This document shows, piece by piece, positions 1 to 19,449 of a stretch of DNA of 64,000 bases. Numbering within the stretch: position 1 is the first letter of the stretch; every line of letters begins with the position of its first letter. Origin of the DNA: Candidatus Omnitrophota bacterium (lineage in GTDB: Bacteria > Omnitrophota > Gorgyraeia > Ghiorseimicrobiales > Ghiorseimicrobiaceae); the NCBI GenBank assembly GCA_030681595.1, contig JAUXSB010000061.1:5392-69391 (forward strand). Reading direction: 5' to 3'. The notes beneath the pieces are model-generated. The model had not been told where the DNA came from. It made no database searches and saw only the letters and a list, made by a program, of their open reading frames with translations. Both the position numbers and the translations under genes were made by a program.

Positions 1-1898
1 TCTTCCTCACAAAGGATTGAGCATCCTTCCCCCTGCACCTGCACTGTGAACTGATTCTCTCCAATACGAATTATCTTTCGCTGAGATTCTTCCTGCTGTT
101 TTTGAGTTTTAACAGAAATATCAATTCCCTCAATAGACTCATCAACCTTAGAAGGCTTTGCCTTGCTGATAAATTCTTCACCGAAAAGCCTTGTGGCATT
201 AGTGTAGTCATATACCCTGAACATTGATTTTGAGCCTCTTGGCTCTCCTGTTCTTGTTCCTCTTCCAACCATCTGATAAAAACTTATGGGTGATTCTATG
301 TATCTGAAGAATACAACGTTATCGAGGTTAGGTATATCCACTCCTGTTGAAAGCAAATCAACAGTAGCAGCAATAAAATGGGAATTCTTTGAACCTCTGA
401 AATCAGGAATTAGCTTATCTGCCGAAGGCCTTAAATCAGGATTGCCTGTGCATTGAAAAGCATACATTTCTTTTGGTGAACGCTTATTATCCCTGCACCA
501 CTTCTCATAAACATTATTCAAGGCTATCATAACCTGATTGGCATGAGAATCCCTTGCGCAGAAAATTATTGTTTTCTGATGAGGGCCGCCTGTATCAAGA
601 AAATGCTGGAATAAATCCTCTGACATTGCCTTTACCCTGTCATCAAGCATCAGCTTCATCTCATAGTCTTTTGCAGTATATTTATCTTCAATATCATTCG
701 GATTAATCTTCTTGCCTGTAAATGGATCCGTTGCTGAACGTTTTTCAATATCTTCTTTGGTAATCTCTTTTTTGTCCAAGTCAACTAATCTTCTAACAAC
801 TTCGCAGGCAGCAAGATAACCGTCATCCTGGCCTGAGCCCATCGAGTATTCATAAACAGGCTTTCCAAAATAATCAAGATTATGTGAGGTAACCTCTTCG
901 TCTGCTTTTCTTCCCGGGGAATCTTTCTTCCCACCAACAACAATTCTTGGAGTAGCTGTTAACCCAACATGCACTGCATCGGGATTATCTCTCAGGATTA
1001 CACTCCATTTGCCCCATGCGCTTCTATGACACTCGTCTATGATGATATGGCTGAAGAAATTCTTAGGGTAATTTTCTTTCCAGAATTTTGGCTCATCGAA
1101 TTCCTCAGTAGTATTAAGGGTTTGATAAGTCGCAACGAGAACCTTGGCATTCCTTTGAGGGTCTTGGGTTGTAACTATCTGGGCATTATCGCCAAAGATG
1201 GCATGAAGCTTAGCTATACCCTGTGTCCTTAACTCATCCCTGTCACATACAAACAAAGCTCTCTTTAATTTCCCTGCCTGAGCAAGCTTATAGAGCAATT
1301 GCACTGCGATTATTGTCTTGCCTGTGCCCGTTGCAAGAGAAAGCAAAACTCTTTTATCACCTCCGGCTAATTTTTCCAAAGTAGCCCTGATAGCTGCATC
1401 CTGAAAATAATACCTTGCTGCTTCTCCACCCTTATATGGCATTAGCAATGGCTTCGCTGCTTCAGACTCGAGCTGGATATTCTTTATTTTTTCATATCTC
1501 TGCTTCAAATCATTTGGGGCGGGAAAGATGTTTAATCCCAAAGAATCCTTAATCTGCCCTGTATCTTCTGCATACTCACAATAGAGATTACCATTGGTTG
1601 AAAAAACAAAGGGAACATGAAACTTCTTCATATAGTCCCTGGCCTGTTGAATACCCAAAGAAGGCAATTTATCCTCCGCCTTCGCTTCAAGCAGAGCAAC
1701 CGGCAGGATTGATTTGCCCTCAACAAGTGGAATACAAAGGAGATAATCAGTCCTGCCTTTTCTCTTGCGAGGCCTGCCATCAATAATATCAACTCCACCG
1801 GGAGTTCTTTCTTCCCGAATTAGCGCTTCAACCCATCCTCTTTCATGCAAGGCTGGATTTATGAGCTCAATTCTTGTCTGTTTTTCATCTCTTGCCAT
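1..1898 (-). CDS. hsdR: Type I restriction enzyme R-subunit-like nuclease-helicase (HSDR_N PD-(D/E)xK domain + SF2 helicase); C-terminus runs off the left window edge
   Basis: Uninterrupted minus-strand frame from ATG at 1898 (AGGA RBS 5 nt upstream on minus strand) to position 1. It is absent from the ORF track only because it is edge-truncated. The N-terminus MARDEKQTRIELINPALHERGW carries the classic HsdR N-terminal motif, followed by D..EAK. SF2 motifs are present: ATGTGKT (I), IIIDECHRS (II), LTATP (III), QMVGRGTR (VI). The track ORF 71..268 is out of frame inside it. Confidence 0.6.
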   Translation of the reverse strand, partial: MARDEKQTRIELINPALHERGWVEALIREERTPGGVDIIDGRPRKRKGRTDYLLCIPLVEGKSILPVALLEAKAEDKLPSLGIQQARDYMKKFHVPFVFSTNGNLYCEYAEDTGQIKDSLGLNIFPAPNDLKQRYEKIKNIQLESEAAKPLLMPYKGGEAARYYFQDAAIRATLEKLAGGDKRVLLSLATGTGKTIIAVQLLYKLAQAGKLKRALFVCDRDELRTQGIAKLHAIFGDNAQIVTTQDPQRNAKVLVATYQTLNTTEEFDEPKFWKENYPKNFFSHIIIDECHRSAWGKWSVILRDNPDAVHVGLTATPRIVVGGKKDSPGRKADEEVTSHNLDYFGKPVYEYSMGSGQDDGYLAACEVVRRLVDLDKKEITKEDIEKRSATDPFTGKKINPNDIEDKYTAKDYEMKLMLDDRVKAMSEDLFQHFLDTGGPHQKTIIFCARDSHANQVMIALNNVYEKWCRDNKRSPKEMYAFQCTGNPDLRPSADKLIPDFRGSKNSHFIAATVDLLSTGVDIPNLDNVVFFRYIESPISFYQMVGRGTRTGEPRGSKSMFRVYDYTNATRLFGEEFISKAKPSKVDESIEGIDISVKTQKQQEESQRKIIRIGENQFTVQVQGEGCSILCEE

Positions 1899-1968
1899 GT
1901 TAGGAATCCTTATTTAGCTAAGAATTAGAGGACTTAATAATTTTTCTATATCTTTTCCAGCGGTTCGC

Positions 1969-3000
1969 TTAGAAAGAATCTTTTATCTCAAAATTTACTT
2001 TATAAAACTTCAATTTTATTAGACCATTAAGGGGTTCGACTGCATAAGACAAGCGCTCATCTGGCTCATTCACAATTATTATTCCTCTTACCTTTGTATT
2101 GAAATTCCTCTTAACCCATCCTACATATCTTAAGGTCTGACCGACAACCTTATCATTTTCTCTGCCTTTCTTTAACTCTACCACAACATGATTGCCTTGT
2201 TTATCTTTACACAACAAATCTATCTTTCCAACTTCTCTCGTATCATACTCTTTTCCAACCAAAGAAAATCCCTTTTCTAAAATAAAGATGTTCTCAGTAA
2301 GATAATCTCTTAAATCATTCTCGATTGATATTGAACCATAAGATTTCATGGCTTCTTCTGGACCTTCTTCTCCCTGAGCAAAAGCAAACCACAACAGATT
2401 ATTTACTAAATTATACTTCTCTAAGCCTAAAAGTTCTTTTATGGCTTGAAAAATAACACAATCTCTTAAATAATCTAATGTCCTTTCTAGTAATTCCTCT
2501 TTATCAGTAATATTAAAAATTTGTGTTGCATCTTTTAACGCGGCTTGATCCTGTTCAGAATTGATTTGGATTGCCTCTTTAGTCTGAGAGGTAACAAAGG
2601 GATATTTGCTGGGATCAGAAGAAACCAGAAATTGCGAGAGCGTCTGAATTCCGATTCCTTTGAGTCTAAAGAAATTATTTACTCTGCTTGGGAATGAATC
2701 AGTTCCATGAATTAAGTTTCTTAGTTCTTTGTTGAATTCTTCTATAGAGTTATTTTTATAAAGGAGATTTGTCAGATTTCTGTTTGCAGAGAAATGCTTC
2801 ATATAACCGAATAAGTCATCCAGCTTTTCAGGCGTTAAATCCTTTCCTTGCTTAAAATCCTCGCTATTCAAAATTGCTCTAGTCTGGATTTCCGCCTTCG
2901 CCTCTTCTTCATACCAATTTTTCGCTTCTTCTGAAGATAAGCTATTTTTCCACAATCTCAAATTCTCAATTTGTTCAGGGGTAAATTTAAATTCAGCCAT
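1969..3000 (-). CDS. NucS/DUF4263-like PD-(D/E)xK nuclease-domain protein with an unrecognised ~230-aa N-terminal region
   Basis: The C-terminal segment GKIDLLCKDKQGNHVVVELKKGRENDKVVGQTLRYVGWV matches the NucS/EndoMS-type and DUF4263 (Shedu-like) nuclease core (D..ELK..Q..Y). It is co-directional with hsdR-like, 70 nt apart. Confidence 0.5.
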   Translation of the reverse strand: MAEFKFTPEQIENLRLWKNSLSSEEAKNWYEEEAKAEIQTRAILNSEDFKQGKDLTPEKLDDLFGYMKHFSANRNLTNLLYKNNSIEEFNKELRNLIHGTDSFPSRVNNFFRLKGIGIQTLSQFLVSSDPSKYPFVTSQTKEAIQINSEQDQAALKDATQIFNITDKEELLERTLDYLRDCVIFQAIKELLGLEKYNLVNNLLWFAFAQGEEGPEEAMKSYGSISIENDLRDYLTENIFILEKGFSLVGKEYDTREVGKIDLLCKDKQGNHVVVELKKGRENDKVVGQTLRYVGWVKRNFNTKVRGIIIVNEPDERLSYAVEPLNGLIKLKFYKVNFEIKDSF

Positions 3001-3045
3001 GTTTTTTCCTCTTTTGTTTATGTGCAGATTGCCTTAATAATTTTT

Positions 3046-3186
3046 CTACTTGCCTAATATCCTCATCATAACAGTTCCGCAATCAGGGCATTTGCCTTTC
3101 ATTGCTTTCCTGCCATTTTTCAGGGTTACCTGTTCTTCATCCTTCATTTCTTTCTTTAATTTACATTTCAAACAGTATGCTTGCAT
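3046..3186 (-). CDS. Small zinc-ribbon protein (DUF5679-like), 46 aa, below the ORF-track size cut-off
   Basis: Minus-strand ORF MQAYCLKCKLKKEMKDEEQVTLKNGRKAMKGKCPDCGTVMMRILGK, with an AGGAG RBS 7 nt upstream of the ATG. It has two CxxC pairs. It lies between the NucS-like and Mrr-like genes on the same strand. Confidence 0.5.
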   Translation of the reverse strand: MQAYCLKCKLKKEMKDEEQVTLKNGRKAMKGKCPDCGTVMMRILGK

Positions 3187-3229
3187 TTTTTACTCCTTGC
3201 TAAGATTTAATAAAAATATTTACCTTATA

Positions 3230-4099
3230 TTATCTTTTTCCAAAGAATTTCATAAATAATCTTTCATTAAATATTTGTTTTCCATTCTTTTGAGAAAACC
3301 ATTCCCTAGTGTCTGAAGATTTGATTAAATCTTCAACGATTTGCTCACCAGTTTTTAAAATTATCCATTCTTGTTCAGCATAATTAACAGCGCGGCGAGT
3401 ATAACCAGAGGTCGTCATAAATATACATAAAATAGGACTCTTTACAGAAACAAACCAACTAGGCAACTTCTCAACTAAATTTTGATCGCCACGTTGCACG
3501 CTCAAATAATAGGTATGAAATGATCTTATTAAGATAGGAGAAATTTTACTTGAAAAATGTTTAACTTGACCAATAACCCTTATTTTAAAGTTGTCAGGTA
3601 AAATCCTAGTAGTAAGATACTTCCCAATATCAAAAAGTCCACAAAAATCAATACCTTCCTGATTTTTGGCTGTAAGCTGTATAGGATAGATACCACTTTG
3701 TTCTAATATATACTTACATAAAAACTCAAATTTTTGCCAAGATATTTTGTTGATCGCTTGGATTAATTCTTTTTTTTGTTTTCTTAACTCAGAAATCCGC
3801 AGATCTTCTTTGTGCTTTATGCTATAACTAATAAGCAAGTATTCGGGAAATTCATTAAACTCATAAGCAGGAGAAATCCCCTCTTTTTTACAGTCCTCTA
3901 TCCATTTACATATATAAAATTTGGTTTTTTTAAGAAGGACCTGATTTTCATCTATAAGTTGGAACTCACTTAGATTTGGAAAATGTTTTTTTAATTTATC
4001 ATAACTGTACTTTTCTAAGTCTATCTTATCGAACTTTGAATCTTTAATTTCCTTAAGAATTATCTTAGCGATTTTTGTTATCTCAGAATTAGAAAGCAT
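3230..4099 (-). CDS. Mrr-like (type IV restriction endonuclease catalytic domain) protein
   Basis: The C-terminal half WQKFEFLCKYILEQSGI..QEGIDFCGLFD..RVIGQVKHF fits the Mrr_cat pattern (GxDGGIDG ... QCKRY). Its start abuts the stop of the upstream ParB-like gene (4099/4102). Confidence 0.5.
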   Translation of the reverse strand: MLSNSEITKIAKIILKEIKDSKFDKIDLEKYSYDKLKKHFPNLSEFQLIDENQVLLKKTKFYICKWIEDCKKEGISPAYEFNEFPEYLLISYSIKHKEDLRISELRKQKKELIQAINKISWQKFEFLCKYILEQSGIYPIQLTAKNQEGIDFCGLFDIGKYLTTRILPDNFKIRVIGQVKHFSSKISPILIRSFHTYYLSVQRGDQNLVEKLPSWFVSVKSPILCIFMTTSGYTRRAVNYAEQEWIILKTGEQIVEDLIKSSDTREWFSQKNGKQIFNERLFMKFFGKR

Positions 4100-4101
4100 T
4101 T

Positions 4102-5250
4102 TTATTTAATATTTTTTAGTTGAACATTAAGAATTGTTATTAAATTTTCTATTAGTTTGATTATTTCTTCTTTCTGCTTTTTTCCCAGTTGAGTGTTTGC
4201 CAGTTTAATCTGTGGTATAGGTAAGGTGTTTATAACTTTTCCAGTCGACTTTAGGTATTCAATTAACTCAACAATATCTATTGGTTCTTTTCTTTCCTTC
4301 TCTCTAAAAATCTTTTCATGAAATTGCTCGATATCAAAATCTTCTTTTTCGATTTCTTTTTCAAAATCATCTAAAAGTTTCTTATTTTCTTGTATAACAA
4401 GATCGGCCAACAAATCACGAGTATTTTTAGAAACGGTTAATTTCGGTTCTTTTCCTTCTATAGTTGTTGTCCACGAAAGAAACTTTTTAAGATTTTTTTC
4501 ATTCTTGAATTTTCTCTTCTTATCATTCCATCCTAGCCATATCTGTAAGGTGGGTTTTTTAAAGATAATCTCATCGAAAAGCCCGAATTTTTCAGGATCT
4601 AATCTATCACCATAGTCCTCATCACTTCTCGATTGTTCGAATGCATAAAAAGAACGAAGAGATAGAGTAACCTCTGATCGTCCCATTCCACTGAATATAG
4701 CAGCAATCTCACGAACATCTTTTTTACTCTCTTTTTCAAAGTCCGCAAGGAATCTTGCGGTAGGGTATTTCTCCCAAGACTTAATACCTGGAGTGTGTCT
4801 AAAGCCTTGTATAATCCAAGCTATTTCTGGATTCTTTCCGTGGTAAACCAAAGCTTCTATTTTAATAATTCCATCGTATATATCTTTTGGGATATTAATT
4901 CTACCTTTTGTATGTGCTGATTGTAATGTTCTGAGTGCCGCGACTCTTCTATTGCCTTCTACAACGACAAATTGGTCAGTTCCAAAAGGCCTTAAAACTA
5001 TTCTGTCAACAACCCAAAAACCAGAAGTTTTCATGCTTTCCATTAAATCATTAATTCCCTGTTTTTGTAATTGTTGCAAACAATCCTGCTGTATAGCCAG
5101 CTCGGATATCCTAACATCTGGAATCTTTTCTTTTCCTGGCTTGTCAATTCTTGGATTATTGGGATCAAGAAAAATCTGGTCTAGTTTCACTTTTTGGGAG
5201 CCCATATTAGACATTTCAGCCCAAGCTTCTAGTTTTTTATACTTTGGCAT
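4102..5250 (-). CDS. ParB/Srx N-terminal nuclease-like domain protein with a coiled-coil C-terminus
   Basis: IVLRPFGTDQFVVVEGNRRVAALRTL resembles the ParB N-terminal (ParBc) arginine-finger motif GxRRxxA. The C-terminal 150 aa are Lys/Glu-rich. It sits in an operon with the neighbouring nuclease genes. Confidence 0.5.
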   Translation of the reverse strand: MPKYKKLEAWAEMSNMGSQKVKLDQIFLDPNNPRIDKPGKEKIPDVRISELAIQQDCLQQLQKQGINDLMESMKTSGFWVVDRIVLRPFGTDQFVVVEGNRRVAALRTLQSAHTKGRINIPKDIYDGIIKIEALVYHGKNPEIAWIIQGFRHTPGIKSWEKYPTARFLADFEKESKKDVREIAAIFSGMGRSEVTLSLRSFYAFEQSRSDEDYGDRLDPEKFGLFDEIIFKKPTLQIWLGWNDKKRKFKNEKNLKKFLSWTTTIEGKEPKLTVSKNTRDLLADLVIQENKKLLDDFEKEIEKEDFDIEQFHEKIFREKERKEPIDIVELIEYLKSTGKVINTLPIPQIKLANTQLGKKQKEEIIKLIENLITILNVQLKNIK

Positions 5251-5299
5251 GTTCTTCCTCCTTAGAAATTAGCGTTCTACCAACAAAATGAAAATCTCT

Positions 5300-6469
5300 T
5301 TATAAACTTGCTGTTGACTTCTTATTATTTAATTTTTTGTCATATTTATAAACTTTATGCATTCCCCTTTTAAATTCATCGGCATTTTTTCCAAACATTT
5401 TAAGAAAGACTTTTCTATTTTTCCTGATTACACCTCTTGAATAATAAAATGTTGTAATTAATTTAATACCTCGCAATAATATGCTATTCCATTGGGGAGA
5501 GATAATATGTTTTTGGATACTATTTATAGGGCGATATCTCATAGGGAAAATATCAACTCCAAGTTTATTTAATTCATTAATTCGATGATAAAAGAATTCT
5601 GGAGTGTCATATGCCTCTTCTGAATTAAAAATAACATAAACCATTATATCTTTCCCACTATATTTTTTTGCAAGTTTTATCGCATTTTGAATATATCCCT
5701 CTTGTGATGGATTATCAAAAGCAAATCTTAATGGGTCAATTTTCGTTTGGGAAAGAATTTTAGCCTTTTCTTCATCAAAAAGTCTACAATCTATACCTTG
5801 ATTAAAATCAAATGGTTTTCCTATCTTCTTTAATTTTTCAATATCTTTATAAAAATTTGGAGAAGCCAACCAATTATTATCCCAAAAAATAATTTTTTTA
5901 GAATTTGGATTTATATCTTTTTCCCAATTTTTTCTCACAAAGAATTTTGGTTCAAGTAATCGAACAACACAAAATTTACATTTTCTTATACACCCCCTTG
6001 TTGTATATGTTATTGAAAAGGGGAAAGATGGTAGAAAAGAGTAATCAGGACTACATCCTTCAACTTTATCAAAAAGACCAACATGTGGAATTATCCCCGT
6101 TTCTCTTTTTATTAAGTCTGGTAAAAGTGTTGCTAATATACCCCCTACTTTAACTTCAGCATTTGGATATCTACTTTGATAATCTTTTATAGATTTTATT
6201 GCTGCTTGAAAATGATAAGTAAATAGAGTTGTTATATAAATTATATCATATTGCTCTTTAAGTTTTGGTGGTTGATAACCAAAATAATCTTGAGGTGCAT
6301 TATCTTTTATATAATCAACTTCATCTCCTTTATTTTTATGCCAGGTTGAAATTTTCATTAATGCCAATGAAGGATATGGATTCTCATAACCGGGTTCAAC
6401 AAGCAATATTTGTTTATTCATAATTAATCTATAGACCCCATAATATTTAAAGATTCCGCTTTTAACCAA
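5300..6469 (-). CDS. Class B (B12-binding domain) radical SAM protein
   Basis: The N-terminal KQILLVEPGYENPYPSLALMKI is typical of a B12-binding Rossmann domain, followed by TTRGCIRKCKFCVV (CxxxCxxC). The likely true start is the internal Met at about 6421 (MNKQILL). Confidence 0.6.
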   Translation of the reverse strand: MVKSGIFKYYGVYRLIMNKQILLVEPGYENPYPSLALMKISTWHKNKGDEVDYIKDNAPQDYFGYQPPKLKEQYDIIYITTLFTYHFQAAIKSIKDYQSRYPNAEVKVGGILATLLPDLIKRETGIIPHVGLFDKVEGCSPDYSFLPSFPFSITYTTRGCIRKCKFCVVRLLEPKFFVRKNWEKDINPNSKKIIFWDNNWLASPNFYKDIEKLKKIGKPFDFNQGIDCRLFDEEKAKILSQTKIDPLRFAFDNPSQEGYIQNAIKLAKKYSGKDIMVYVIFNSEEAYDTPEFFYHRINELNKLGVDIFPMRYRPINSIQKHIISPQWNSILLRGIKLITTFYYSRGVIRKNRKVFLKMFGKNADEFKRGMHKVYKYDKKLNNKKSTASL

Positions 6470-6623: not shown

Positions 6624-7931
6624 CTACAACTTCTTGCCTCTCCTATCTTCCGTAAGCACGCTTATCCTTACAACCCTGCTGTCCTTGAAATATACAAAAA
6701 TTCCCGCTTCCGGAAGCTTATACCACCAGTATTCTAAAATTTTCTTATTTCCCCCGCTAGGTTTTTTAACTGCCGGCTCGCCTAAAACTTCAGCCACTTC
6801 TTCCTTGCCTTTGCCTTTTAGCTTTTGGCTTAACGCTTCTTCATTATAGATTAAGCCTTGATCTAACTCACTTTTCTCTAAATAAATGTTGCTTCGAAAA
6901 TTATCTGTATCCCTATCAGGCCAGAGCAAAACCATTACAGGCAGATGATCAGAAGCATATTTTCCGTAAAGCCATATCTGCCTATTATCGCCCTTTAATA
7001 TCCTTGGAATTTTAATGTCTTGCTGAAAGCTTAAGTCTTCTTTCCATGCCTGATGAACTTGTGCTGACTCCGGAATAATATCTTCACCGCTATACTCTAC
7101 CTGATACCATATTGTATCATACTGGCTATTGGATAACCTACCTTTTGGCTTATTAAGAGTTGTTACATCACTTGAGGTCAATAGATGTTTCATGCCCAGC
7201 AGACCCTTTAAATCATCCCATTCCTTCTTATCAACATTTGTATTAAAATCACCCATAAGGAAAATATCATTCTGATTTGGATCTAAATCCTGAACAGTCT
7301 TATAAACGATGGCAAGCCTCTTTATTTCATCTTTCCGCCATTTTGCAGCAGGAGCAGCCGCATGAATTGTAATAAGCGTAAAATCCAAATTTCCATTTCT
7401 TACCTTGAATGAAGCAATAAATGGCTCTCTGTCAAACTGCCTTTCCTGATCTTTTAAATCTTGCATGGAATTTTTGACCTCATCCCATAAATTGGCTGAA
7501 TCTGTAATCAAATCAATCTTTGACTTCCTGAAGATAAAAGCGTAATACTCAAAGGTATTGAGTGCCTTGCTTTTCTCTGCGTTTGCTGTTCCATTTGGTT
7601 CTCGGCTTATAACATAATCCCAATCATCGCCAAGATAAAAAACTATTTTCTTTAATGCCTCTATGCCGACATTCCCAAGAGGATCAGTCTTACTCGCGCC
7701 TGTATTCATCACCTCTTGAATCGCCACGATGTCATAATTCTTAAGAATCTCCGCGGCATTTTTTGATTGGTATTCATTGGCTTTGCCCAATTTTTCTATG
7801 TTGAATGTGCCCAAGCGGATTTGATTGGCATGAGAGGGCTCTACAATACCGGCAAAGGCATACTGAACGTAGAATATAAAGGTTAAAACTAGTAAAAATA
7901 CTATATTATTAAGTTTTCTTTTGGCTGTCAT
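6624..7931 (-). CDS. Secreted endonuclease/exonuclease/phosphatase (EEP, DNase I-like) family protein
   Basis: An N-terminal signal peptide is followed by RLGTFNIEKLG...YDIVAIQEV, the EEP hallmark. It overlaps the upstream gene by 23 nt, indicating translational coupling. Confidence 0.6.
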   Translation of the reverse strand: MTAKRKLNNIVFLLVLTFIFYVQYAFAGIVEPSHANQIRLGTFNIEKLGKANEYQSKNAAEILKNYDIVAIQEVMNTGASKTDPLGNVGIEALKKIVFYLGDDWDYVISREPNGTANAEKSKALNTFEYYAFIFRKSKIDLITDSANLWDEVKNSMQDLKDQERQFDREPFIASFKVRNGNLDFTLITIHAAAPAAKWRKDEIKRLAIVYKTVQDLDPNQNDIFLMGDFNTNVDKKEWDDLKGLLGMKHLLTSSDVTTLNKPKGRLSNSQYDTIWYQVEYSGEDIIPESAQVHQAWKEDLSFQQDIKIPRILKGDNRQIWLYGKYASDHLPVMVLLWPDRDTDNFRSNIYLEKSELDQGLIYNEEALSQKLKGKGKEEVAEVLGEPAVKKPSGGNKKILEYWWYKLPEAGIFVYFKDSRVVRISVLTEDRRGKKL

Positions 7932-8733
7932 CTTCTTTCTTTTTTATGGTTAGGGGTATGCTTTTAAATAATCCGATAAAGAACAATATAATCCCCCCTA
8001 CTCCCGCCACGAATAAAATAAAAAGAGCAATTAACAATATCGCGACTACCAGGAGAATTAAAAAGAATAACATTGCAGTAACAAAGTATAAAAACTGAAA
8101 GAAAGCTACCTTAATAGAATGAATAAACCTATTTTCTTTGTAAGGCAATTCAACTGTTGTTACTGTATCAAATAAAAGCTTATTGTTAAAATCTACCGGC
8201 ATAACTTTATATGGCTCTCTTTCAAAGCAATACACTCCGGCTACAAGCAAGCCCGTGCATACCAACTCAGAACAAAAGTAAGCATCTCTCAAATTAAAAC
8301 ACCTGCCGAGAAAAGCATCGCCCCAGATGAAATGAATTTGTGGAGGGGTAAGATTATAGAACAAAAAATATAAAAGCGCCCTGAAATCATATCCCTTACT
8401 AACTGAATTCTTGCAGAAGTCTATGGTTTTTTGAAGGATTAATTGAGATGCATTCTTATGCCGTAATATAAGCAACTCAAAATCACCCTTAAGATAAGAT
8501 TCTTTAAAATCTCTTTTTACTATGCCACCGGGGAAAGCCTCGACAACTTGGCCATCGCCAATATAAAGAGCAGCATGCGTCCAATGCCTTTCCTTATAAC
8601 CTCTCTTAAAAAAATTGGCTAACTTTATTGGCAATGATCCCCATCTAATCCCTCTGCCATTAGTAAGAATAATATCGCCTGGAATTAATTTACTAATGAC
8701 TAGATTATTCACTGCAACCTCCTGATTAAACAA
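7909..8733 (-). CDS. YiiX/DUF830-like permuted papain-fold (NlpC/P60 superfamily) hydrolase with a C-terminal TM helix
   Basis: HWTHAALYIGDGQVVEA and a downstream CSELV Cys motif; the C-terminus has a hydrophobic helix. Confidence 0.45.
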   Translation of the reverse strand: MFNQEVAVNNLVISKLIPGDIILTNGRGIRWGSLPIKLANFFKRGYKERHWTHAALYIGDGQVVEAFPGGIVKRDFKESYLKGDFELLILRHKNASQLILQKTIDFCKNSVSKGYDFRALLYFLFYNLTPPQIHFIWGDAFLGRCFNLRDAYFCSELVCTGLLVAGVYCFEREPYKVMPVDFNNKLLFDTVTTVELPYKENRFIHSIKVAFFQFLYFVTAMLFFLILLVVAILLIALFILFVAGVGGIILFFIGLFKSIPLTIKKKEDDSQKKT

Positions 8734-8851: not shown

Positions 8852-9502
8852 CTAAAACAGCCATTTATTTTCTCGCTCATCAAAATAATAAACTACTTGT
8901 TTTTCATTATAACGCAGTTCAGAATAACTCTCTATTTTGTGCTCTTTATTATTAATATCCTGCCATGTAACTGTTAACCATAACTTAAAAGGGTTTTCTC
9001 TGCTTTTAGCAATTGCTTCAATACCATTAGGAATATCTGGAGACCATTTAACAATCGCAGTTTCGGGATAGAACATATTAAAAATTAAACCGCGTTGCTT
9101 AGCTATTACATCCCATGCTTGAGAATCTACGTGTCTTCCAGCACCATCATCTATTTCGAATTTAACATGGATATTCTTCGATAATTTCTTATTTTTTATT
9201 TTGACCAAAGCAACTATCAATGCTTTTCTTTGTCCTTCTACTTGCGGAGGATTAGGTATATAGGGCACAAAAGCGAGAGGTTTAATAGAGAGAATGGAAG
9301 TTTTGTCTGAGAGAACTTTCAGTATATTATTATACTTCTCTCCAACTTTCAAATACGATTTATTTTTGACAAAGTTATATAAGTCTGTAACAAGTAAAGT
9401 AAAAATAGTTAAACCAGCCAAAGATAATAAAAAAATAAATCTTTTTTTGAATCTCTTTTTTCTCGTAAGACTCTCTTTGGCCTTGGATGGGGCTTTAGAC
9501 AT
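8852..9502 (-). CDS. Hypothetical membrane-anchored protein
   Basis: A complete ORF with one N-terminal TM segment, in the same operon orientation as the neighbours; no recognisable motif. Confidence 0.35.
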   Translation of the reverse strand: MSKAPSKAKESLTRKKRFKKRFIFLLSLAGLTIFTLLVTDLYNFVKNKSYLKVGEKYNNILKVLSDKTSILSIKPLAFVPYIPNPPQVEGQRKALIVALVKIKNKKLSKNIHVKFEIDDGAGRHVDSQAWDVIAKQRGLIFNMFYPETAIVKWSPDIPNGIEAIAKSRENPFKLWLTVTWQDINNKEHKIESYSELRYNEKQVVYYFDERENKWLF

Positions 9503-9507
9503 TTAAG

Positions 9508-10617
9508 TTATTTTAGCTTATTGATAATCTTTTGATTTGCTGAACTCTGTTGATACTCTTTCATCCTTGCATAGCAAATCGACCAGTCAAAAGTATTGTA
9601 TAGGTCATTAAATAAATTATTAGCCCAATTCTTATATCTAACAGAAGAGGGGTTCCAAGCTGTCCATCTGCTGAAGGTTGCCTTGCAATTTGTTACTAAA
9701 GCAAGATTGCCATAGTCATTTCCCCAAAAATATAACTCATTAAAATCTTTTTCTTCAGTATTTAATCCGAGAAAATATGCTACCTGCCCCAAACCTACAG
9801 TGTATGATTGGTAGTTTATTTTAATTCTAATGTCAAAGAAAAATCTCTTATAAAATCTGTATTCGGCGCTGTTGTTATACGTAGAATAATAAATCTTTGT
9901 ACCTTTAGGCATAGCAAGAGCCCTAAATATATTTAAATCATTAAAAAACATATTCTGTTTAAGAGAAATTGGCAATTTATCTTTCTCATATCTTGAAATA
10001 TCATTTTTAACGTTCTCTATTTCTATAAGATGATATTCGCCCATCGTTCCTGAGGGAACCTCTTTTTGAGTTCCGGTTACATGCCAAATATGTCCATAAA
10101 ACATAGAGAGATGACCAAGAATAGCAATAGCTTGAATATCTAAAAGTGGTTTTACTTCTTGAGGCATATTAAAAATAACATCTGTTTTTGAATCCAGAGA
10201 TCTTCTTAAGTAATTGCCAAACACTCCACTCTGTAATCGATAATACTGCCCCAACCCCGGTTTGTCAGGAAAGAACAAAAAGCCATCCTTTACTCTAATC
10301 TTTTTATCTTCATTATTTTTATTATCATTAAAATCTGATTCTTTATGTTCTATAAAATATACTGAAGTTATAGCTCTTTCTAATGTTTCTTCTTTAGTTA
10401 CATAAAATAACGCTCCGATTATAACTCCCGCAATAATTATCGTGGCCTCTTGTATTTTTGTTGAACTTCTATTTATGTACAGAAGCCATAATAAAAAATA
10501 TCCAAGTACTAACAAGCAAATCGGCATTATCTTTGACATAAAACAGCTCCTTTTCTTTGCCCATATTATACCCCTTTTAGTGGCAAATTCTAACCTTTTT
10601 CTTGCCCCGCAAAACAC
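9508..10617 (-). CDS. Hypothetical membrane protein
   Basis: A complete ORF with N-terminal TM helices. The likely start is the internal Met (MSKIMPICLL, about 10539). No recognisable catalytic motif. Confidence 0.35.
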   Translation of the reverse strand: MFCGARKRLEFATKRGIIWAKKRSCFMSKIMPICLLVLGYFLLWLLYINRSSTKIQEATIIIAGVIIGALFYVTKEETLERAITSVYFIEHKESDFNDNKNNEDKKIRVKDGFLFFPDKPGLGQYYRLQSGVFGNYLRRSLDSKTDVIFNMPQEVKPLLDIQAIAILGHLSMFYGHIWHVTGTQKEVPSGTMGEYHLIEIENVKNDISRYEKDKLPISLKQNMFFNDLNIFRALAMPKGTKIYYSTYNNSAEYRFYKRFFFDIRIKINYQSYTVGLGQVAYFLGLNTEEKDFNELYFWGNDYGNLALVTNCKATFSRWTAWNPSSVRYKNWANNLFNDLYNTFDWSICYARMKEYQQSSANQKIINKLK

Positions 10618-10880
10618 CTTAACAATCTCTTCAATTCCTGCGCGCTCAGCCTATCTGCCTCTCTTAGCCCGCACTCATGCCTCAGCAACAGATAAAACCT
10701 TATTATTGCCTTCGTCTCTTCAATCAACTTCCTATGCCTTCTATTCCGGAACCATGTAATTAGGCTAATCATCTTGCCACCTCCTACTATAATTGACGTA
10801 AGAAGTGGCAAAATCTAACAAATATTTTTATGGACATGACATTTTAGAAGCTTATAATATAAGATATTATGAGGTGAAAA

Positions 10881-11801
10881 ATGAGCGCTAAAAAAGCAAG
10901 AGACCTAAAAATACAAGTAGCGGAAGGTATTAAGGTATTAGAAGCATCTGTGACTGTCGTAAAGGCAGCGGATAATGTTGCAGAAATAAAAGCAGGGGAT
11001 TCTTTGGATCAAAAAATCAACACAGCCATGCCACTAACACCAGAGTTAATTGAGAACATGGCTAAAAAAGTCAAAGATTTATTAAACAAACAGTCCTCTG
11101 CTGTAGAAGCTTCTGGAGACTCACAGTTTGAAGGCTTCATCGCCCAAGGAATAGAAGCAGGACTTATTATTAGCGCAACAACAGGTAGCGCTATATCGCT
11201 AAATAAAAGCTTTTTAGTTGGACAGCAGAGTAAAGCGATAATTATAAATAACTTTAAGGATATTAATATTTATCAAGGAAACAAAAGCTATAAAGATCAA
11301 CCTGTAATCACTGAAGAAAGTATAAGAAAAATTACTCTTGCTCAACTTTTTAAACAAATAGAAAATTTAACATTAGGAGCATTGGGGTCAATCATTGTTA
11401 TTTTAGTTGTAATTATTACACTATCATTTAAAGCTGGCTATCATTATAGAGAGATTACTCAATCTTCAACAATAATTAAACAAACACCATCTCTTGAACA
11501 GCTAAACAGCTATCAAATATCACTTCTCAAAGAAATTTACAAATATCAGAAAATAACCGAGGTTAATAAAGTCATTATAGATAGAGTGGGATTTATTTTT
11601 GATGAGTCAACAAAGAAAAACACATCGATCAATGTTGCTGTTAATGTATTGGGTAATCGTGCAGATCAAACTCGATTTGAAGAGCTGATAATATCTATCC
11701 CTGAAGTTTTTCTAAAAAGCTTAACAGAAACAAGATGGGGTAGCCCATATGTTTTAACTATTACAGAAGAAACGCGTAAGCTTTTAGATAAGAATCTCTG
11801 A
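10881..11801 (+). CDS. Hypothetical protein with a central TM helix
   Basis: A complete ORF with a GAGGTG RBS before the ATG at 10881. It has a single hydrophobic segment LGALGSIIVILVVIITL. Confidence 0.35.
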   Translation: MSAKKARDLKIQVAEGIKVLEASVTVVKAADNVAEIKAGDSLDQKINTAMPLTPELIENMAKKVKDLLNKQSSAVEASGDSQFEGFIAQGIEAGLIISATTGSAISLNKSFLVGQQSKAIIINNFKDINIYQGNKSYKDQPVITEESIRKITLAQLFKQIENLTLGALGSIIVILVVIITLSFKAGYHYREITQSSTIIKQTPSLEQLNSYQISLLKEIYKYQKITEVNKVIIDRVGFIFDESTKKNTSINVAVNVLGNRADQTRFEELIISIPEVFLKSLTETRWGSPYVLTITEETRKLLDKNL

Positions 11802-13758: not shown

Positions 13759-14527
13759 ATACTTCTAAAATCCCTTTAGGCAAACTCGACCTATCCCCTA
13801 ATAACATTGTTGATAAAACCGCCGCGTAGCTTTTAGGCATATTAGCGTAAAAACCCGCCTGTATCTTTTGCTTAAACCTTAAGGCAATTTCTTTAATAGG
13901 GCTTGCTTTATGCCGGGCGATTACTTCAAAGCGGTTGTCCTTTTTTACATTTAACACGCCATATATGCCTTGGCGCGCTAAATAGCGGCGATAATTAAAG
14001 TTGCCTTTCCCGCTAAAATTATACGGGCTAAAAAAATTCCCTTCTAAGATTAATTCATCTCCGTAAGATACTGGATGCCCGCTTGCCTCGCCAGCGCTTT
14101 GTGGCGGGTCAAAAAGCTGAACTAAAATTTTTCCCCTCGCTGTTGCTTTTTGCTCCCCAAACCCTATCTCCGACAAACGTAATATGAACCTAACTCTTTC
14201 CCCTTTAAGTTGCGGCTCATTCTCAATTATTCCTGTCGCTAAAACTTTATCCTGCCAAAAAAGTGATTTGTAATTGCTGATGTGGTTTTTCGGCAAAGCC
14301 TGACAGCACGATAAATATGCGGCGCCTAAAAAGAAAACCAACCCCAGTAAATTTATGTCAAAGGCTTCGTCATTTTTTAAAAACAGGCAAACGAAAAATA
14401 AAAATACGCTGAGGCAATAACAAATAAAAAACGGGATACTGCCAAATTGCGCCGCCAATATCCCTAAAATAAAACTGATTACAGCCGCCGGAAGGACAAA
14501 GATTATTTTTTTATTTTGATTACTCAA
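13673..14527 (-). pseudogene. comEC: comEC N-terminal fragment (DUF4131 region) truncated within the competence-domain motif
   Basis: AAVLSTMLLGDRSSLPKGILEVFVRTGTAHIL matches the ComEC LGDRSGL...RTGTAHLLAISGLH region. The frame ends 18 codons later without the competence TM domain or the metallo-beta-lactamase domain. It overlaps the comEA start by 8 nt. Confidence 0.5.
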
Positions 14528-14891
14528 GAATAAGAAATGCTTTTATTTTTTCTATTTTCTTCTCGCTTATGCCTTTGATATTTTTTAACTGGTTTATCTC
14601 GGTGAATTTACCGTTTTTTATACGGTAATCGATAATCGCCTGCGCGGTTTTTGGCCCGATAAGCGGCAATTCAGCCAACTGTTCTTTATCCGCGGTATTA
14701 ATATTGACTTTGAGGGGTTTATTAAATGATGGGGTAGCGTAAATTTCGCCTGCCTTGGGCATTACCTTAAACAAATAACTTATGCCGATGCCGACAAGTG
14801 CCGCAAAGGTAACCGCCAAAATGACATTCTTTTCCTGACGGGTGAGGTTAAGCTGGAGCATATATTTAAATAACCAATGGCCAATTACCAA
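14520..14891 (-). CDS. comEA: ComEA-like helix-hairpin-helix DNA-binding competence protein
   Basis: An N-terminal TM helix is followed by INTADKEQLAELPLIGPKTAQAIIDYRIKNGKF..INQLKNIKGISEKKIEKI (tandem HhH). Confidence 0.7.
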   Translation of the reverse strand: MVIGHWLFKYMLQLNLTRQEKNVILAVTFAALVGIGISYLFKVMPKAGEIYATPSFNKPLKVNINTADKEQLAELPLIGPKTAQAIIDYRIKNGKFTEINQLKNIKGISEKKIEKIKAFLILE

Positions 14892-14927
14892 ATCCCAATG
14901 AATAGGAAATTACGAAATTTATTAAGA

Positions 14928-17339
14928 TTATATTACTATATTCACCAGCTTATTCGGCACAACTACAAAATTTTTGATTGGCTTGCCTTCAAGCCATTTT
15001 TTGACTATTTCGCGGGAAAGAACCAAATCTTTGAGGAGTTCTTTACCTATATCGACTTCGACTTCAATTTTATCTCTCACTTTACCGTTAATTTGTATAA
15101 CCAAGGCGGCCTTGTCTAACTTTAAGAATTCCGGATTAAACTCAGGCCATGAGGCGCAAGTAACGCTCTCTTTCTCTCCGAGCGAGTGCCACATTTCTTC
15201 GGCAATATGCGGCACAAACGGCGAAAGCAAAATTACCAGCGCCTTTAATACGTCTTTATTTGCCGCATCAGCCTTATAAATTTCATTTACCAATTCCATT
15301 ATTGAACTTATCGCTGTATTGAATTTAAACCCGCCTTCCATGTCTTCGGTTACTTTTTTAATCGTGCTATGCAGGCGGCGCAGAAGTTCTAGGCTCGGCG
15401 CTTTATCATCGGCTTTCTCCAATAAGCGCCAGACACGCATTAAAAATTTAAAAGAACCGTCTATTGCCGTATCATTCCATTCAAGCTCTGTCTCAGGGGG
15501 GGCAGCAAAAAGAATAAATAATCGCAGAGTATCAGCGCCATATTTCTTGATAATCCCATCAGGGTCAACAATATTGCCCTTTGACTTAGACATTACTTCG
15601 CCGTCTTTTAAAACCATCCCTTGCGTAAGCAGCTTATTAAACGGCTCATCTACCGAAGCTAAGCCTAAGTCTTTAAGAAATTTGGTATAAAAACGCGAAT
15701 AAAGCAAGTGCAAAATAGCATGTTCAATACCCCCGATATACTGGTCTACCGGCATCCAGTAAGCCGCTTCATTTTTGTCAAAAGGCGCTTCGCTAAACCT
15801 TGGTGAGCAAAAACGCAGGAAATACCACGACGAATCAATAAAAGTTGCCATGGTATCGGTCTCACGGCGCGCATGGCCTTTACATTTCGGGCATTTAACA
15901 TTGGTAAATTCTTCCACCTTAGAAAGCGGGCTGCCGCCTTCACCTGTAATCTTTATCTTTTCGGGTAGTTTTACCGGTAAATCTTCGTATGGCACACCGA
16001 CAACGCCGCACTTTAAGCAGTATATTACCGGGATAGGTGTACCCCAGTAACGCTGGCGCGAAATCAACCAGTCCTTAAGCCGCCAATTAGTAGTAATTTT
16101 ACCAATGCTTTTTTTCTCCATCCACTGGGCAATTTTTTCCTTGGCCGGATAATTTCTCGACCCGTCAAACTGCCCAGAATTTACCAAATAGCCTATCCCC
16201 TCATGCGCTTCAGTCATACTATCAACTGAAAGAATAGATTCATCGTCCAATCCCGGCTGAATTACTATGCGCATTGGCAGGTTGTGTTCTTTGGCAAAGA
16301 TAAAATCGCGCTGGTCATGTGTAGGGACCGCCATAATTGCCCCTGTCCCATATTCCATCAATACGTAATCCGCGATAAAAACCGGAATAATTTCATTATT
16401 TACGGGATTTACAGATTTTATTCCCTTGAGTTCAATACCGGACTTGTCTTTTTCTATGCGTTCCAGCCTGGTCTTTTTTTTCGCATTTTCAATATAGCCT
16501 GATACCTCTTTTATATTTAATATTTTATCTTTTATCTTTTCTATTATTTTATGTTCCGGAGCTAACACAATATAAGTTGCCCCAAAAATAGTATCAGCGC
16601 GGGTGGTAAATACCGGAATTATAGTATCGCTGTTTTCTAAGCGAAAATAAATTTCCACCCCACTACTTCTGCCAATCCAATTGTATTGCATGGCAATTAC
16701 GCGGTCCGACCAATGTTTTAATTGGGCCAAATCTTCTAAAAGCGCATCCTGATACTGGGTAATCTTTAGATACCACTGCTCCAAATCCTTTTGCAAAACC
16801 GGCGTATGGCACCTCCAGCATCCACCGTAAATTACTTCTTCATTTGCTAAAGTTGTTTCACAGCTGGGGCACCAGTTTACGCTGGATGCTTTTTTATAAG
16901 CAAGGCCGCGCTCCATCATCTTTAAGAATATCCACTGGTTAAAACGGTAATATTCAGGGTCACAGGTTGCTAATTCCCGTTCCCAATCATAAGAAAAACC
17001 CATCCGTTTAAGCTCAACCTTCATCCAGTCCATGCATTTATATGTCCAATCTTTAGGATCAGAGTTATTTTTTATGGCGGCATTTTCCGCAGGCTGGCCG
17101 AAAGCGTCAAACCCCATAGGATGAAGCACATTAAATCCGCATATCCTCTTATAACGCGCTACGACATCCCCGATAGTGTAATTGCGCACATGGCCCATAT
17201 GTATCCTGCCTGAAGGGTAGGGAAACATTTCCAGGCAATAGAATTTTTTACGCGTGTAGTCCATTTTGGCGCGGAAAATTCCCTTCTCCTGCCAGAACTT
17301 CTGCCATTTAGGTTCAATTTGTGAAAAATCGTAAATCAT
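14928..17339 (-). CDS. leuS: Leucyl-tRNA synthetase
   Basis: 803 aa with the HMGH motif ([12 protein letters not shown]), the KMSKS motif (VMSKSKGN) and a CP1 editing domain. Confidence 0.95.
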
Positions 17340-17344
17340 AAGTT

Positions 17345-17839
17345 TTAACGATAATTGCAGAAAGAAAGCGGAAGGGGGAAATCTATGCCTCTTAGATGCG
17401 CAATCACAGCTTGTAAATCGTCTTTCTTCGGCGAGGAAACCTTAATTTTTTCTCCTTCAATCTGAGTCTGTACTTTTAACCCCAGATCCTTGATAATTTT
17501 ATTTAACTCTTTAGCCTTTTCTTTGTCAATGCCGCTTGAAATTTCTACCGCCTGCCGTAAAGTCCCTTCAAAAGCTTTCTCGGGTTCTTTAAAATTAAAG
17601 AATTTTACCGACACCCCTCTTTTGGCTAATCTTGTCGCCAGCATATCCCTTAAAGCGCAGAGCTTAAAATCGTCATCTCCAATAAGAGTCAACTTCTTCT
17701 CAACGCGCTCAAATTCAATAGAAGACTTACTACCCTTAAAATCATACCGCTGGGCAAGCTCCTTCTTCGCCTGATTTACGGCATTATCTACTTCCTGCAT
17801 ATCTATTTCTGAGACAATATCAAAAGAAAAATTAGCCAT
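17345..17839 (-). CDS. yajQ: YajQ family nucleotide (c-di-GMP)-binding protein
   Basis: 164 aa starting [27 protein letters not shown], typical of the YajQ/UPF0234 N-terminus. Confidence 0.75.
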
Positions 17840-17892
17840 ATTCTTCCCCTTTTTGCATATTTTTATTATTGTAACATAAAAACGGCTATTTT

Positions 17893-17930
17893 CAAGCCAA
17901 CAAAAAATCCCAACGTATTGTTGGGATTAA
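17893..17930. terminator. Bidirectional rho-independent terminator hairpin
   Basis: aaaaaatcccaacgtattgttgggattaaaaaaaa is a perfect 9-bp stem flanked by A-runs and T-runs on both strands. Confidence 0.5.
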
Positions 17931-18280
17931 AAAAAACGCCGACAAAGGCGACATTATTTACTATCACCCTTATCTAACTTCCGGCCCTCTCTTTCAAGGC
18001 ATGTTAAGGAATTACCTCATCGCCTCCTCGCATCCTTACCTTACTAGGGCCTACCTTTATCGGCTACTTATAGTATAACACAGATTTTACCCTTTTTCAA
18101 GGGGAGGCACCCGACGAGAAATTTAGCGTAAGGTAAATATGGTACACGGGAAACAGTCAACGCCCTATAATGGTGAATGCCGAATTACACTAATTCGGCA
18201 TTCATAAAACCTTTCATTGTGGTGGCGCCGAAATACATTGTTTCGACATCCACTTCTAATTTCATTAAAGAAATTAGAAG

Positions 18281-18353
18281 TGGAGCTGGAGGGAGTTGAA
18301 CCCTCGACCTATTGCATGCCATGCAAGCGCTCTCCCAACTGAGCTACAGCCCC
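18281..18353 (-). tRNA. tRNA-Ala (anticodon GGC), no encoded CCA
   Basis: Reverse complement GGGGCTGTAGCTCAGTTGGGAGAGCGCTTGCATGGCATGCAATAGGTCGAGGGTTCAACTCCCTCCAGCTCCA. It folds as a cloverleaf with anticodon loop ATGGCAT. One C-T mismatch lies at the base of the anticodon stem. Confidence 0.75.
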
Positions 18354-18480
18354 ATATTTTAAATGACAAAATAAACTAAATTAAGTCCTTGACCTTTGAT
18401 ATGTTAGAATATAAAATAGTGGACATCAACTCGCCTTAATATTATATCAATAAAAGAGGCTGGGTCAACTAAATCTTGCG

Positions 18481-18909
18481 GTGGCCGCTAAGCCAAGCCT
18501 AATGAAAAATACTATCCACTTAAAGCATAATTGGGATATAATATTATTCGGGATTATAGAAATTCTTATTGGCGGAATAACTTTAACGGCTGTATTGTTA
18601 AGCCTTATTGAGAGTAAATCTACAAAACCGCTAAATATACTGCTATTTGTCTTATTTACCGCCTCGACTTCATTAGGTATAGGCATAGGGATAATAAAAC
18701 GCAACCTGGTTTGCTGCCGTTTATTGCTTTATTTCTCCAGTATAATTGTTTTAAGTAAATTTTTGATCTTTGCTAAAATTATCAGTATTAACGGCGCGCT
18801 GGAAACAACCATTCCCAGCCCGGTAAAAAACATAACTTCTATAATCTATCACGGCATCATTCTGCTTTATTTCACGCGCCGTAACATAAAAGCTAAATTT
18901 AGAGAGTAA
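18481..18909 (+). CDS. Small hypothetical multi-pass membrane protein
   Basis: 142 aa with four hydrophobic segments; it ends 5 nt before tRNA-Leu. Confidence 0.4.
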   Translation: MAAKPSLMKNTIHLKHNWDIILFGIIEILIGGITLTAVLLSLIESKSTKPLNILLFVLFTASTSLGIGIGIIKRNLVCCRLLLYFSSIIVLSKFLIFAKIISINGALETTIPSPVKNITSIIYHGIILLYFTRRNIKAKFRE

Positions 18910-18914
18910 ATATT

Positions 18915-19447: not shown

Positions 19448-19449
19448 CC

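Follow-up and report, generated by a model that had tools for sequence, protein, structure and literature searches.

A number of described systems couple a DNA-modifying activity to a protein with the ParB fold. Phage thymine dioxygenases of the 5mYOX/TET-JBP family need a cognate orphan ParB on double-stranded DNA, and relatives of these ParB-dependent enzymes are paired with C5-cytosine methyltransferases (PMC13229309). ParB-methyltransferase fusions also exist, PD-lambda-5 among them (PMC9519451, PMC12704722), and the latter was described as a compact restriction-modification (R-M) plus abortive infection system for which an mrr-deleted host was needed (PMC9519451). In GmrSD and SspE a ParB-superfamily sensor domain, which senses modification, drives a nuclease (PMC12065111). 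Finally, gp53 of phage M6, an SPL-like radical S-adenosylmethionine (SAM) isomerase, installs a thymidine hypermodification and was called the first known example (PMC8989533). Our analysis of a 64,000-nucleotide stretch of a Candidatus Omnitrophota genome (assembly GCA_030681595.1, contig JAUXSB010000061.1; this whole stretch is called "the window" below) shows that positions 1-6469 include three adjacent genes, which encode a radical SAM enzyme, a ParB/Srx-fold protein and an Mrr_cat nuclease, that recur together in bacteria and archaea. We propose that this radical SAM-ParB-Mrr cassette is a modification-linked restriction system with a ParB-family partner, built around an uncharacterised enzyme family.

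Six open reading frames (ORFs), all on the minus strand, are present in this region. They are, in the order of their reading:

5300..6421, minus strand: radical SAM enzyme, 373 amino acids (aa), with C144-x3-C148-x2-C151 and a B12-binding-like N-terminal domain
4102..5250, minus strand: ParB/Srx-fold protein, 382 aa (ParB_N 2e-3, PDC-M38A 1e-46)
3230..4099, minus strand: Mrr_cat PD-(D/E)xK nuclease, 289 aa (Pfam Mrr_cat 1.2e-7)
3046..3186, minus strand: DUF5679 zinc-ribbon protein, 46 aa, with two CxxC pairs (Pfam DUF5679 8e-17)
1969..3000, minus strand: NucS_C-type PD-(D/E)xK nuclease, 343 aa (Pfam NucS_C 8e-18)
1..1898, minus strand: hsdR, the first 632 codons (797 aa in full), cut by the window edge (NCBIfam restrict_EcoAI 5e-117)

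The initial annotation of this region had described six co-directional, closely spaced or overlapping nuclease-rich genes, and had proposed that they form one defence system. The direction and the close spacing are as it described (consecutive genes are separated by 49, 2, 43, 45 and 70 bp), but none of the six overlaps another. A purine-rich ribosome-binding site stands ahead of every one of them and there is no convincing terminator between them (a scan for consensus promoters and terminators gave counts equal to the shuffled expectation and is uninformative). Profile searches against Pfam, NCBIfam and PADLOC models reproduced its domain calls, except that the fifth gene is of the NucS_C type and has no DUF4263/Shedu match. 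The AT-richness it ascribed to the whole region applies to the five upstream genes (27.9-37.6% GC against 40.9% in the remaining window; radical SAM 27.9%, Mrr 29.7%, ParB and the NucS-like gene 33.7%, DUF5679 37.6%) and not to hsdR (41.4%); the low-GC tract (31-38%) runs on upstream to about 11.8 kb, far past the six genes. The longest ORF for the radical SAM gene opens at a TTG at position 6469 and would encode 389 aa, but the ATG at 6421, 16 codons further on, is the start in the public annotation and in homologues, and the alignment favours this shorter 373-aa form. The protein is identical to one annotated as hypothetical in a Candidatus Omnitrophota metagenome-assembled genome.

Two sets of loci, 79 genome loci with radical SAM homologues and 80 metagenome loci found with the ParB alignment, were screened by tblastn and de novo clustering of the neighbouring genes. 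ParB and Mrr homologues lie beside the radical SAM gene in three of the genome loci (L005, L011 and L014), and homologues of the NucS-like, DUF5679 and HsdR proteins are absent from all 79 except for a distant, helicase-level HsdR match in L072. On the ParB side, every locus that has a ParB at least 41% identical to that of the window, and has enough contig, is radical SAM-ParB-Mrr (L081-L083, L085-L088 and L090-L094; in L089, L095, L096 and L098 the contig ends before Mrr). The gene order is that of the window in essentially all such loci, except that L091 has ParB-Mrr-radical SAM. In total, bacteria and archaea have the triplet at about 18 independent loci, whose flanks are unrelated; for example, it sits between several type II R-M systems in L172, has a GHKL ATPase ahead of it but otherwise housekeeping neighbours in L173, and is inserted between fatty-acid synthesis and sigma-factor genes in L174. 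In addition, the radical SAM enzyme and the ParB are naturally fused in P0361, a 757-aa protein with an N-terminal radical SAM domain whose C-terminal half aligns end-to-end with the window ParB at 40% identity; it is identical on two independent contigs (L176:1710-3983 and L177:3798-6071), and an Mrr_cat gene follows it on each. The conserved linkage, the unrelated flanks and this fusion, which is of the Rosetta-stone kind, therefore identify a self-contained mobile three-gene cassette, and horizontal acquisition is the best explanation for its presence in the source genome. More distant ParBs (26-40% identity) keep the Mrr partner; the Mrr cluster includes 57 loci, mostly without an adjacent radical SAM gene, and ParB-Mrr is the two-gene core of the cassette. 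Conserved co-occurrence thus holds for the radical SAM, ParB and Mrr_cat genes and not for the other three that the initial annotation had grouped with them.

These other three are accounted for as follows. No methyltransferase or specificity subunit gene is present inside the window, as had been noted, but the public source contig (L001) reaches past the window edge, and there hsdR (14524-16917) is directly followed by hsdS (16914-18143; 409 aa, Methylase_S) and hsdM (18145-19734; 529 aa, HsdM_N and N6_Mtase with an NPPF motif). The three are contiguous, with overlapping stops and starts, and the suggestion that hsdR might belong to a type I system with the other subunits outside the window was correct. 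HsdR itself is a member of the EcoAI/FtnUII family (PADLOC REase_I 5e-81, in addition to the NCBIfam match given above) with Pfam ResIII (1e-32) and Helicase_C (1e-8) matches, that is, with a nuclease region plus a superfamily 2 (SF2) helicase motor. It is therefore part of a complete, ordinary type I R-M system, and this finding of hsdS and hsdM immediately downstream, one of the outcomes that the initial annotation itself had named as refuting its proposal, speaks against a single six-gene defence system. The system shares with the EcoAI/FtnUII (type IB-like) enzymes the HsdR nuclease and SF2 helicase, an N6-adenine HsdM and an HsdS with two target-recognition halves, and is in no way unusual; the NucS_C-type gene that lies directly upstream, both here and in a close relative, is foreign to canonical type I systems. 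Downstream of hsdM (L001:19859-20402) are two small paralogous ORFs, one of 83 aa that includes KLPKSYVIRSLLDAAMHLKIDV and one of 79 aa that includes the similar KLSKAAIIRALISVAKELDINV, which may encode small DNA-binding or antitoxin-like proteins.

The Pfam match of the NucS-like protein covers only residues 223-311, and its N-terminal part of about 220 residues is unrelated to NucS; the protein also matches YhcG_C, the PADLOC single-gene candidates PDC-S02 and PDC-S11, and Cas4. It is not Shedu (no match to DUF4263, PF14082, or to any PADLOC Shedu model), nor is it NucS/EndoMS, an equivalog of about 225-250 aa, since it reaches 68 and 51 bits with the NCBIfam models, whose cut-offs are 216 and 252. 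A look-up of its exact sequence gave no match; its 235 homologues are of conserved length, about 343 aa. In L163, the closest relative examined, an 80% identical NucS-like gene lies directly upstream of hsdR-hsdS-hsdM (the HsdRs are 95% identical), and the cargo upstream of this block (L163:1-5000) is different: DUF7380/EMARD_N, HTH_17, ParB_N-HTH, HTH_ParB, DUF6602 and PAPS_reduct genes. This suggests that the slot upstream of NucS-hsdRSM is a hotspot for variable cargo beside a type I system (the ParB plus PAPS reductase of the L163 cargo is an uncharacterised pairing that occurs in phages too). In L164, L166 and L168 the NucS-like gene stands alone in unrelated contexts, and across the radical SAM and ParB loci screened its homologues adjoin no radical SAM or ParB homologue. 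The NucS-like nuclease is thus a widespread, usually solitary gene that here sits with the type I block and outside the radical SAM cassette. A DUF5679 gene recurs in just one of about 160 related loci (L104:1748-1879, just upstream of a ParB-Mrr pair without a radical SAM gene), which rules it out as a member of the cassette, and none lies beside the NucS-like homologues examined; an accessory gene between units is its best explanation, and its product may be an occasional regulator of ParB-Mrr cassettes.

Since the NucS-hsdRSM block recurs with other cargo and the triplet recurs without that block, we read the region as an island, and the base composition agrees (28-34% GC in the cassette, 41% in hsdR and the rest of the window). 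The best explanation of positions 1-6469, as judged from gene content and its recurrence, is a defence island of at least three separate units rather than one operon-encoded machine, in which NucS-hsdRSM is best read as one block and the radical SAM-ParB-Mrr cassette, with DUF5679, as cargo swapped in beside it. The six-gene "system" should thus not be catalogued as such; HsdR, the NucS-like protein and DUF5679 are neighbours and not components.

In the radical SAM enzyme a B12-binding-like Rossmann domain at the N-terminus precedes the radical SAM barrel, a partial TIM barrel with the CxxxCxxC [4Fe-4S] motif, an arrangement that it shares with the class B (cobalamin-dependent) enzymes. The family is 55-79% identical across Omnitrophota, Chloroflexi, Thermotogae, and Asgard and DPANN archaea, and has the signature motifs IIFWDNNWL, DFNQGLDxRL, RFAFD and YPMRYRP; the catalytic motifs are invariant in the alignments of all three cassette proteins. 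Outside CxxxCxxC the only conserved cysteine is C212, which distant members replace by alanine, and auxiliary-cluster cysteines are lacking. This excludes a methylthiotransferase of the MiaB/RimO type, in which three N-terminal cysteines hold a second [4Fe-4S] cluster. Nor is the enzyme a prokaryotic viperin (pVip), a CTP/UTP/GTP dehydratase that has a viperin-type core and no B12-like domain. No NCBIfam or PADLOC model matches it, and its family profile matches nothing among the PDB sequences, where the ParB and Mrr profiles find only marginal matches. The mobile context, the fusions to DNA enzymes (below) and the lack of an NCBIfam equivalog rule out a housekeeping role, and the gene does not belong to a lipid or cofactor pathway, the alternative that the initial annotation had raised.

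In the ParB protein a nucleotide-binding domain, whose P-motif E98-G-N-R-R102 is invariant, is followed by an HTH-like middle domain and a helical C-terminus. Its ParB/Srx fold and GxxR P-motif (Box II arginines) make it a ParB of the partition/KorB type. A role in ParABS partition was rejected, as there is no ParA-like gene adjacent to it in the window or in L172-L174, L176 and L177; its conserved neighbour is the Mrr_cat nuclease, which directly follows the ParB homologue in 57 loci and in the window starts 2 bp past the ParB stop. The Mrr_cat match (1.2e-7) scores 32 bits against a cut-off of 21, the D...(Q/E)xK motif is present, and residues E148, D151, Q178 and K180 are invariant in the alignment. 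The N-terminal 110 or so residues of Mrr have no Pfam match, to the winged-helix Mrr_N DNA-recognition domain of type IV enzymes or otherwise, and only weak mREase_IV matches (E about 0.02).

The radical SAM enzyme belongs to a family of at least 2,500 unnamed proteins in many bacterial and archaeal phyla, on plasmids and in phages; an exhaustive representative search gave 3,404 clusters at E<=1e-3, and 406 (at 50% identity) at E<=1e-30. A GHKL/HATPase_c_3 ATPase lies beside the radical SAM gene in 37 of the 79 genome loci, and these loci often add a 315-aa protein without an assigned family, or a nucleotide-cyclase-like protein. Another conserved set is ParB-x-SNF2 helicase-ParB-(DGQHR/DndB-like)-radical SAM-GHKL, which is present on Rhizobium plasmids among other places, and in a Bacillota set the radical SAM and GHKL genes come after those for a large helicase, an MZB-domain protein and a NERD/UvrD helicase. 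HerA-NurA-like pairs also accompany the family, including in Marinitoga camini virus 1. Short phage homologues keep the signature residues and are located in replication and DNA-methylase modules; that of LoVEphage adjoins Dam and PAPS reductase genes and that of Clostridium phage phiCT453B adjoins RusA and DnaD genes. The Candidatus Altiarchaeales locus L011 (3510-13229) has two different cassettes in tandem: in the first a 644-aa radical SAM gene follows GHKL and an unknown gene, and the second is radical SAM-ParB-Mrr. In L173 (5883-10971) the GHKL ATPase is directly ahead of radical SAM-ParB-Mrr, which suggests that the partner sets of the family can combine. L176 has a second, unrelated radical SAM gene (432 aa) after Mrr.

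Informative fusions of the family surfaced solely in the exhaustive representative search. P0362 is a full-length C5-cytosine DNA methyltransferase (PF00145, 5e-57, motifs I-X) followed by the radical SAM enzyme; it is encoded at L175:8001-10334 on a 175-kb contig, and as its locus includes an actin-like ALP_N/MreB-like gene and a PAPS_reduct gene among numerous small genes without annotation, we take it for part of a phage- or plasmid-like element. P0435 and P0445 continue past the radical SAM enzyme with C5-methyltransferase motifs IX-X, and in P0455 the enzyme is preceded by an N-terminal half with FxGxG, PCQ and ENP motifs. Methyltransferase likeness is not demonstrable in the N-terminus of P0445, for which only the C-terminal motifs were counted. 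In these last three proteins the radical SAM domain lies as if inserted into the variable region of a methyltransferase. Pfam scans found no extra known domains in the long radical SAM variants (L011, L056, L066 and others). Inteins (Hint plus LAGLIDADG or HNH) interrupt P0373, P0377, P0378, P0394 and P0401, where the family-profile matches break at about 155, 202-215 and 262, suggesting more than one insertion site; inteins prefer well-conserved genes that belong to DNA metabolism or to mobile elements. What emerges is a large orphan family with links to DNA methyltransferases, to ParB proteins, to inteins and to phages, and the company that it keeps, on mobile elements and in islands, consists almost entirely of DNA-acting nucleoside triphosphatases (NTPases), nucleases and DNA methyltransferases.

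What might such a cassette do? Our preferred reading, whose chances of being right we put at about even, is that the radical SAM enzyme modifies DNA covalently, that the ParB loads or activates this enzyme on double-stranded DNA and reads the state of the DNA, and that Mrr is the nuclease effector. DNA is the likely target because of the C5-methyltransferase fusions, the DNA-acting partners, the phage replication and methylase modules and the inteins. The enzyme would be the "writer", using 5'-deoxyadenosyl radical chemistry, and would place its mark most plausibly at the pyrimidine C5 or C5-methyl position; the C5-methyltransferase fusions make this the most attractive target, a step that is speculative. 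Class B radical SAM enzymes methylate unactivated carbons. The ParB would bind DNA and recruit or activate the enzyme on the double-stranded form, the resulting mark would be read by the cassette, and the Mrr_cat nuclease would cleave DNA recognised as foreign. Defence against phages, DNA as the substrate and the choice of the modified atom are all inferred; cobalamin may be used, and Mrr may attack either unmarked or differently marked DNA. A narrower form of this idea, possible but in our opinion doubtful, is that the family is an oxygen-independent counterpart of the TET/JBP dioxygenases, in which a ParB-activated and probably cobalamin-dependent enzyme attacks the C5-methyl group in double-stranded DNA. 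Hydrogen would be abstracted from the C5-methyl of thymine or 5-methylcytosine, and the product would be an undescribed base, such as a 5-ethyl or otherwise extended pyrimidine; mostly anaerobic hosts would label their own DNA in the ParB-Mrr, GHKL, DndB-SNF2 and HerA-NurA cassettes, and phages and plasmids would use the mark, alone or with a C5-methyltransferase fusion, to escape restriction.

Several observations count against the proposal that the cassette marks DNA and then reads the mark. In about 40 cases ParB-Mrr has no radical SAM gene beside it, which makes the nuclease arm independent of this particular modification, and, as this holds in many genomes, a simple "cut the unmodified" R-M logic is unlikely. 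The C5-methyltransferase fusions demonstrate coupling to DNA methylation and do not thereby fix the molecule on which the radical SAM enzyme acts, and the window cassette has no C5 methyltransferase. The Pfam scores of the enzyme (B12-binding 4e-6, Radical_SAM 1e-3) are both under the curated cut-offs. Its best structural match, AprD4, has the same architecture and is a dehydratase rather than a methylase, so neither the predicted cobalamin use nor methyl transfer is assured by the architecture. The enzyme also occurs without a recognised partner, or with a cyclase-like protein, which fits a role in making a nucleotide signal or analogue, and no description of the family or of the ParB-Mrr pair was found in the literature searched, whose coverage is incomplete.

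The alternative to which a cyclase-like partner points is that the radical SAM enzyme makes a free-nucleotide analogue, chain-terminating or signalling, and that the ParB senses or uses this nucleotide and licenses Mrr. Viperin makes ddhCTP and OxsB makes oxetanocin, and the 55-79% identity of the enzyme across phyla suggests a universal small or invariant substrate. Some cassettes have a nucleotide-cyclase-like partner, stand-alone copies of the enzyme exist, and ParB-fold proteins bind CTP, ATP or GTP (PMC12704722). We nevertheless think it improbable, since at least four architectures fused to C5 DNA methyltransferases are hard to explain in this way, the phage copies lie among DNA methylases and replication genes and not among defence morons, and the nearest structural matches do not act on nucleotides. 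Less probable still, and in our judgement quite unlikely, is that the enzyme serves abortive infection as an effector, or modifies RNA or protein (for example as an rRNA or tRNA methylase or as a toxin that consumes SAM), and would be triggered by DNA-sensing partners (ParB, GHKL, HerA), with Mrr as a second effector. One conserved module swapped among NTPase sensors is indeed reminiscent of shared effectors such as Sir2 or TIR, but the lack of conserved auxiliary-cluster cysteines excludes a methylthiotransferase, and the fusions to C5 DNA methyltransferases, like the location in phage replication modules, speak for DNA. Moreover, radical SAM enzymes turn over slowly and require reducing systems, and these properties suit an emergency effector poorly.

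Two further readings dispense with the three-gene defence cassette altogether. The radical SAM, ParB and Mrr genes could be independent island genes, or could together help to maintain a mobile element, by partition or addiction, and have no part in defence. Defence islands do place unrelated genes side by side, ParB is classically a partition protein and the cassette is clearly mobile, but order and close spacing are maintained over ParB identities of 41-81%, the radical SAM-ParB fusion occurs naturally on two contigs, and in L172-L174, L176 and L177 the cassette has neither a ParA gene nor replication or integration genes beside it; we regard this reading as very unlikely. Finally, all six genes could be one co-transcribed multi-nuclease defence machine, and, given their common direction, their 2-70 bp spacing and the lack of predicted terminators between them, co-transcription is possible in the source genome. 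We find such a machine extremely improbable, however, as all six genes were found together in the source genome alone, hsdR already has partners in hsdS and hsdM, NucS-hsdRSM recurs beneath different upstream genes, the triplet recurs with none of the remaining three genes, and GC content is unequal between the blocks.

Directly upstream of the cassette in the window (6624-7931, minus strand) is a gene whose 435-aa product begins with a hydrophobic, signal-like segment, has a membrane-nuclease domain of the Exo_endo_phos/MnuA family and shows a weak BamE-like match at the C-terminus; it is probably a secreted or surface DNase. This gene overlaps by 23 bp a gene (7909-8733, minus strand) for a permuted papain of YaeF/C92-like type, whose C-terminal tail is long and hydrophobic, and beyond the latter, at 8852-11801, are three AT-rich genes (216, 369 and 306 aa) without a Pfam match.

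Comparison with the systems introduced at the outset shows where the cassette is familiar and where it is not. The initial annotation had judged the region to be unlike Dnd, Dpd, DISARM and BREX, and this judgement stands, as a PADLOC search of the cassette matched none of their models. In particular, DndACDE, SspABCD, DpdA, DpdC-K, DUF262 and DUF1524 are all absent from the cassette in the Pfam and PADLOC searches, PglX/PglZ/BrxC and DrmA-C have no PADLOC match among the five upstream genes, and weak helicase-level PADLOC matches (DpdF, BrxH) are confined to HsdR. With Dnd (DndB), SspABCD-SspE, Dpd (DpdB) and GmrSD it shares the logic of a modification writer, a ParB-superfamily NTPase and a nuclease, and some relatives of the radical SAM enzyme adjoin genuine DndB/DGQHR/DpdB-like proteins and SNF2 helicases; however, the proteins of those systems are of the DGQHR or DUF262 type, whereas the window ParB has the EGNRR GxxR motif, and the putative writer of the cassette is a radical SAM enzyme. 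With PD-lambda-5 and PDC-M38 it shares a ParB N-terminal domain coupled to a (here predicted) DNA-modifying activity. The window ParB matches the PD-Lambda-5_A models (down to 3e-12) and PDC-M38A (1e-46), but only the ParB part of PD-Lambda-5_A is matched and not the methyltransferase part, and the match to PDC-M38A covers profile positions 8-279 of 715 (up to 356 in related ParBs), leaving its C-terminal half (about 360-715) unmatched. The radical SAM and Mrr proteins have no match to any PDC-M38 or PD-lambda-5 model in PADLOC. Methyltransferase and HNH fusions figure in a recent survey of fused ParB-CTPase proteins, in which the word "radical" does not occur (PMC12704722).

TsrM, MgmA, CysS, TokK, AprD4 and OxsB, which are class B radical SAM enzymes or resemble them, are 11-16% identical in sequence to the cassette enzyme, and to our knowledge the known class B members act on small molecules or peptides and none acts on DNA. 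Phage M6 gp53 is parallel in being a radical SAM enzyme that acts on a modified pyrimidine within DNA, but it is an SPL-like isomerase unrelated to the family discussed here, and it is the only radical SAM DNA-modification enzyme in the literature searched. If our preferred reading is true, the cassette would represent a new radical, oxygen-independent and possibly cobalamin-dependent route to DNA modification in prokaryotes and phages, and a sequence-targeted, C-C bond-forming DNA modifier with a nuclease that reads its mark would be of interest for epigenetic tools; in addition, the function of one member would annotate thousands of genes and several candidate defence systems. The phage thymine dioxygenases resemble it in that a modifying enzyme is encoded beside an orphan ParB-fold protein on phages and mobile elements. 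They are O2- and 2-oxoglutarate-dependent jelly-roll enzymes, whereas the cassette enzyme is an oxygen-independent radical SAM barrel with a B12-binding-like domain, and the dioxygenase sets carry out hypermodification without a nuclease, whereas the radical SAM cassette includes an Mrr_cat nuclease. The use of an orphan ParB as the activator of a base modifier would then extend from aerobic phage dioxygenases to largely anaerobic defence cassettes.

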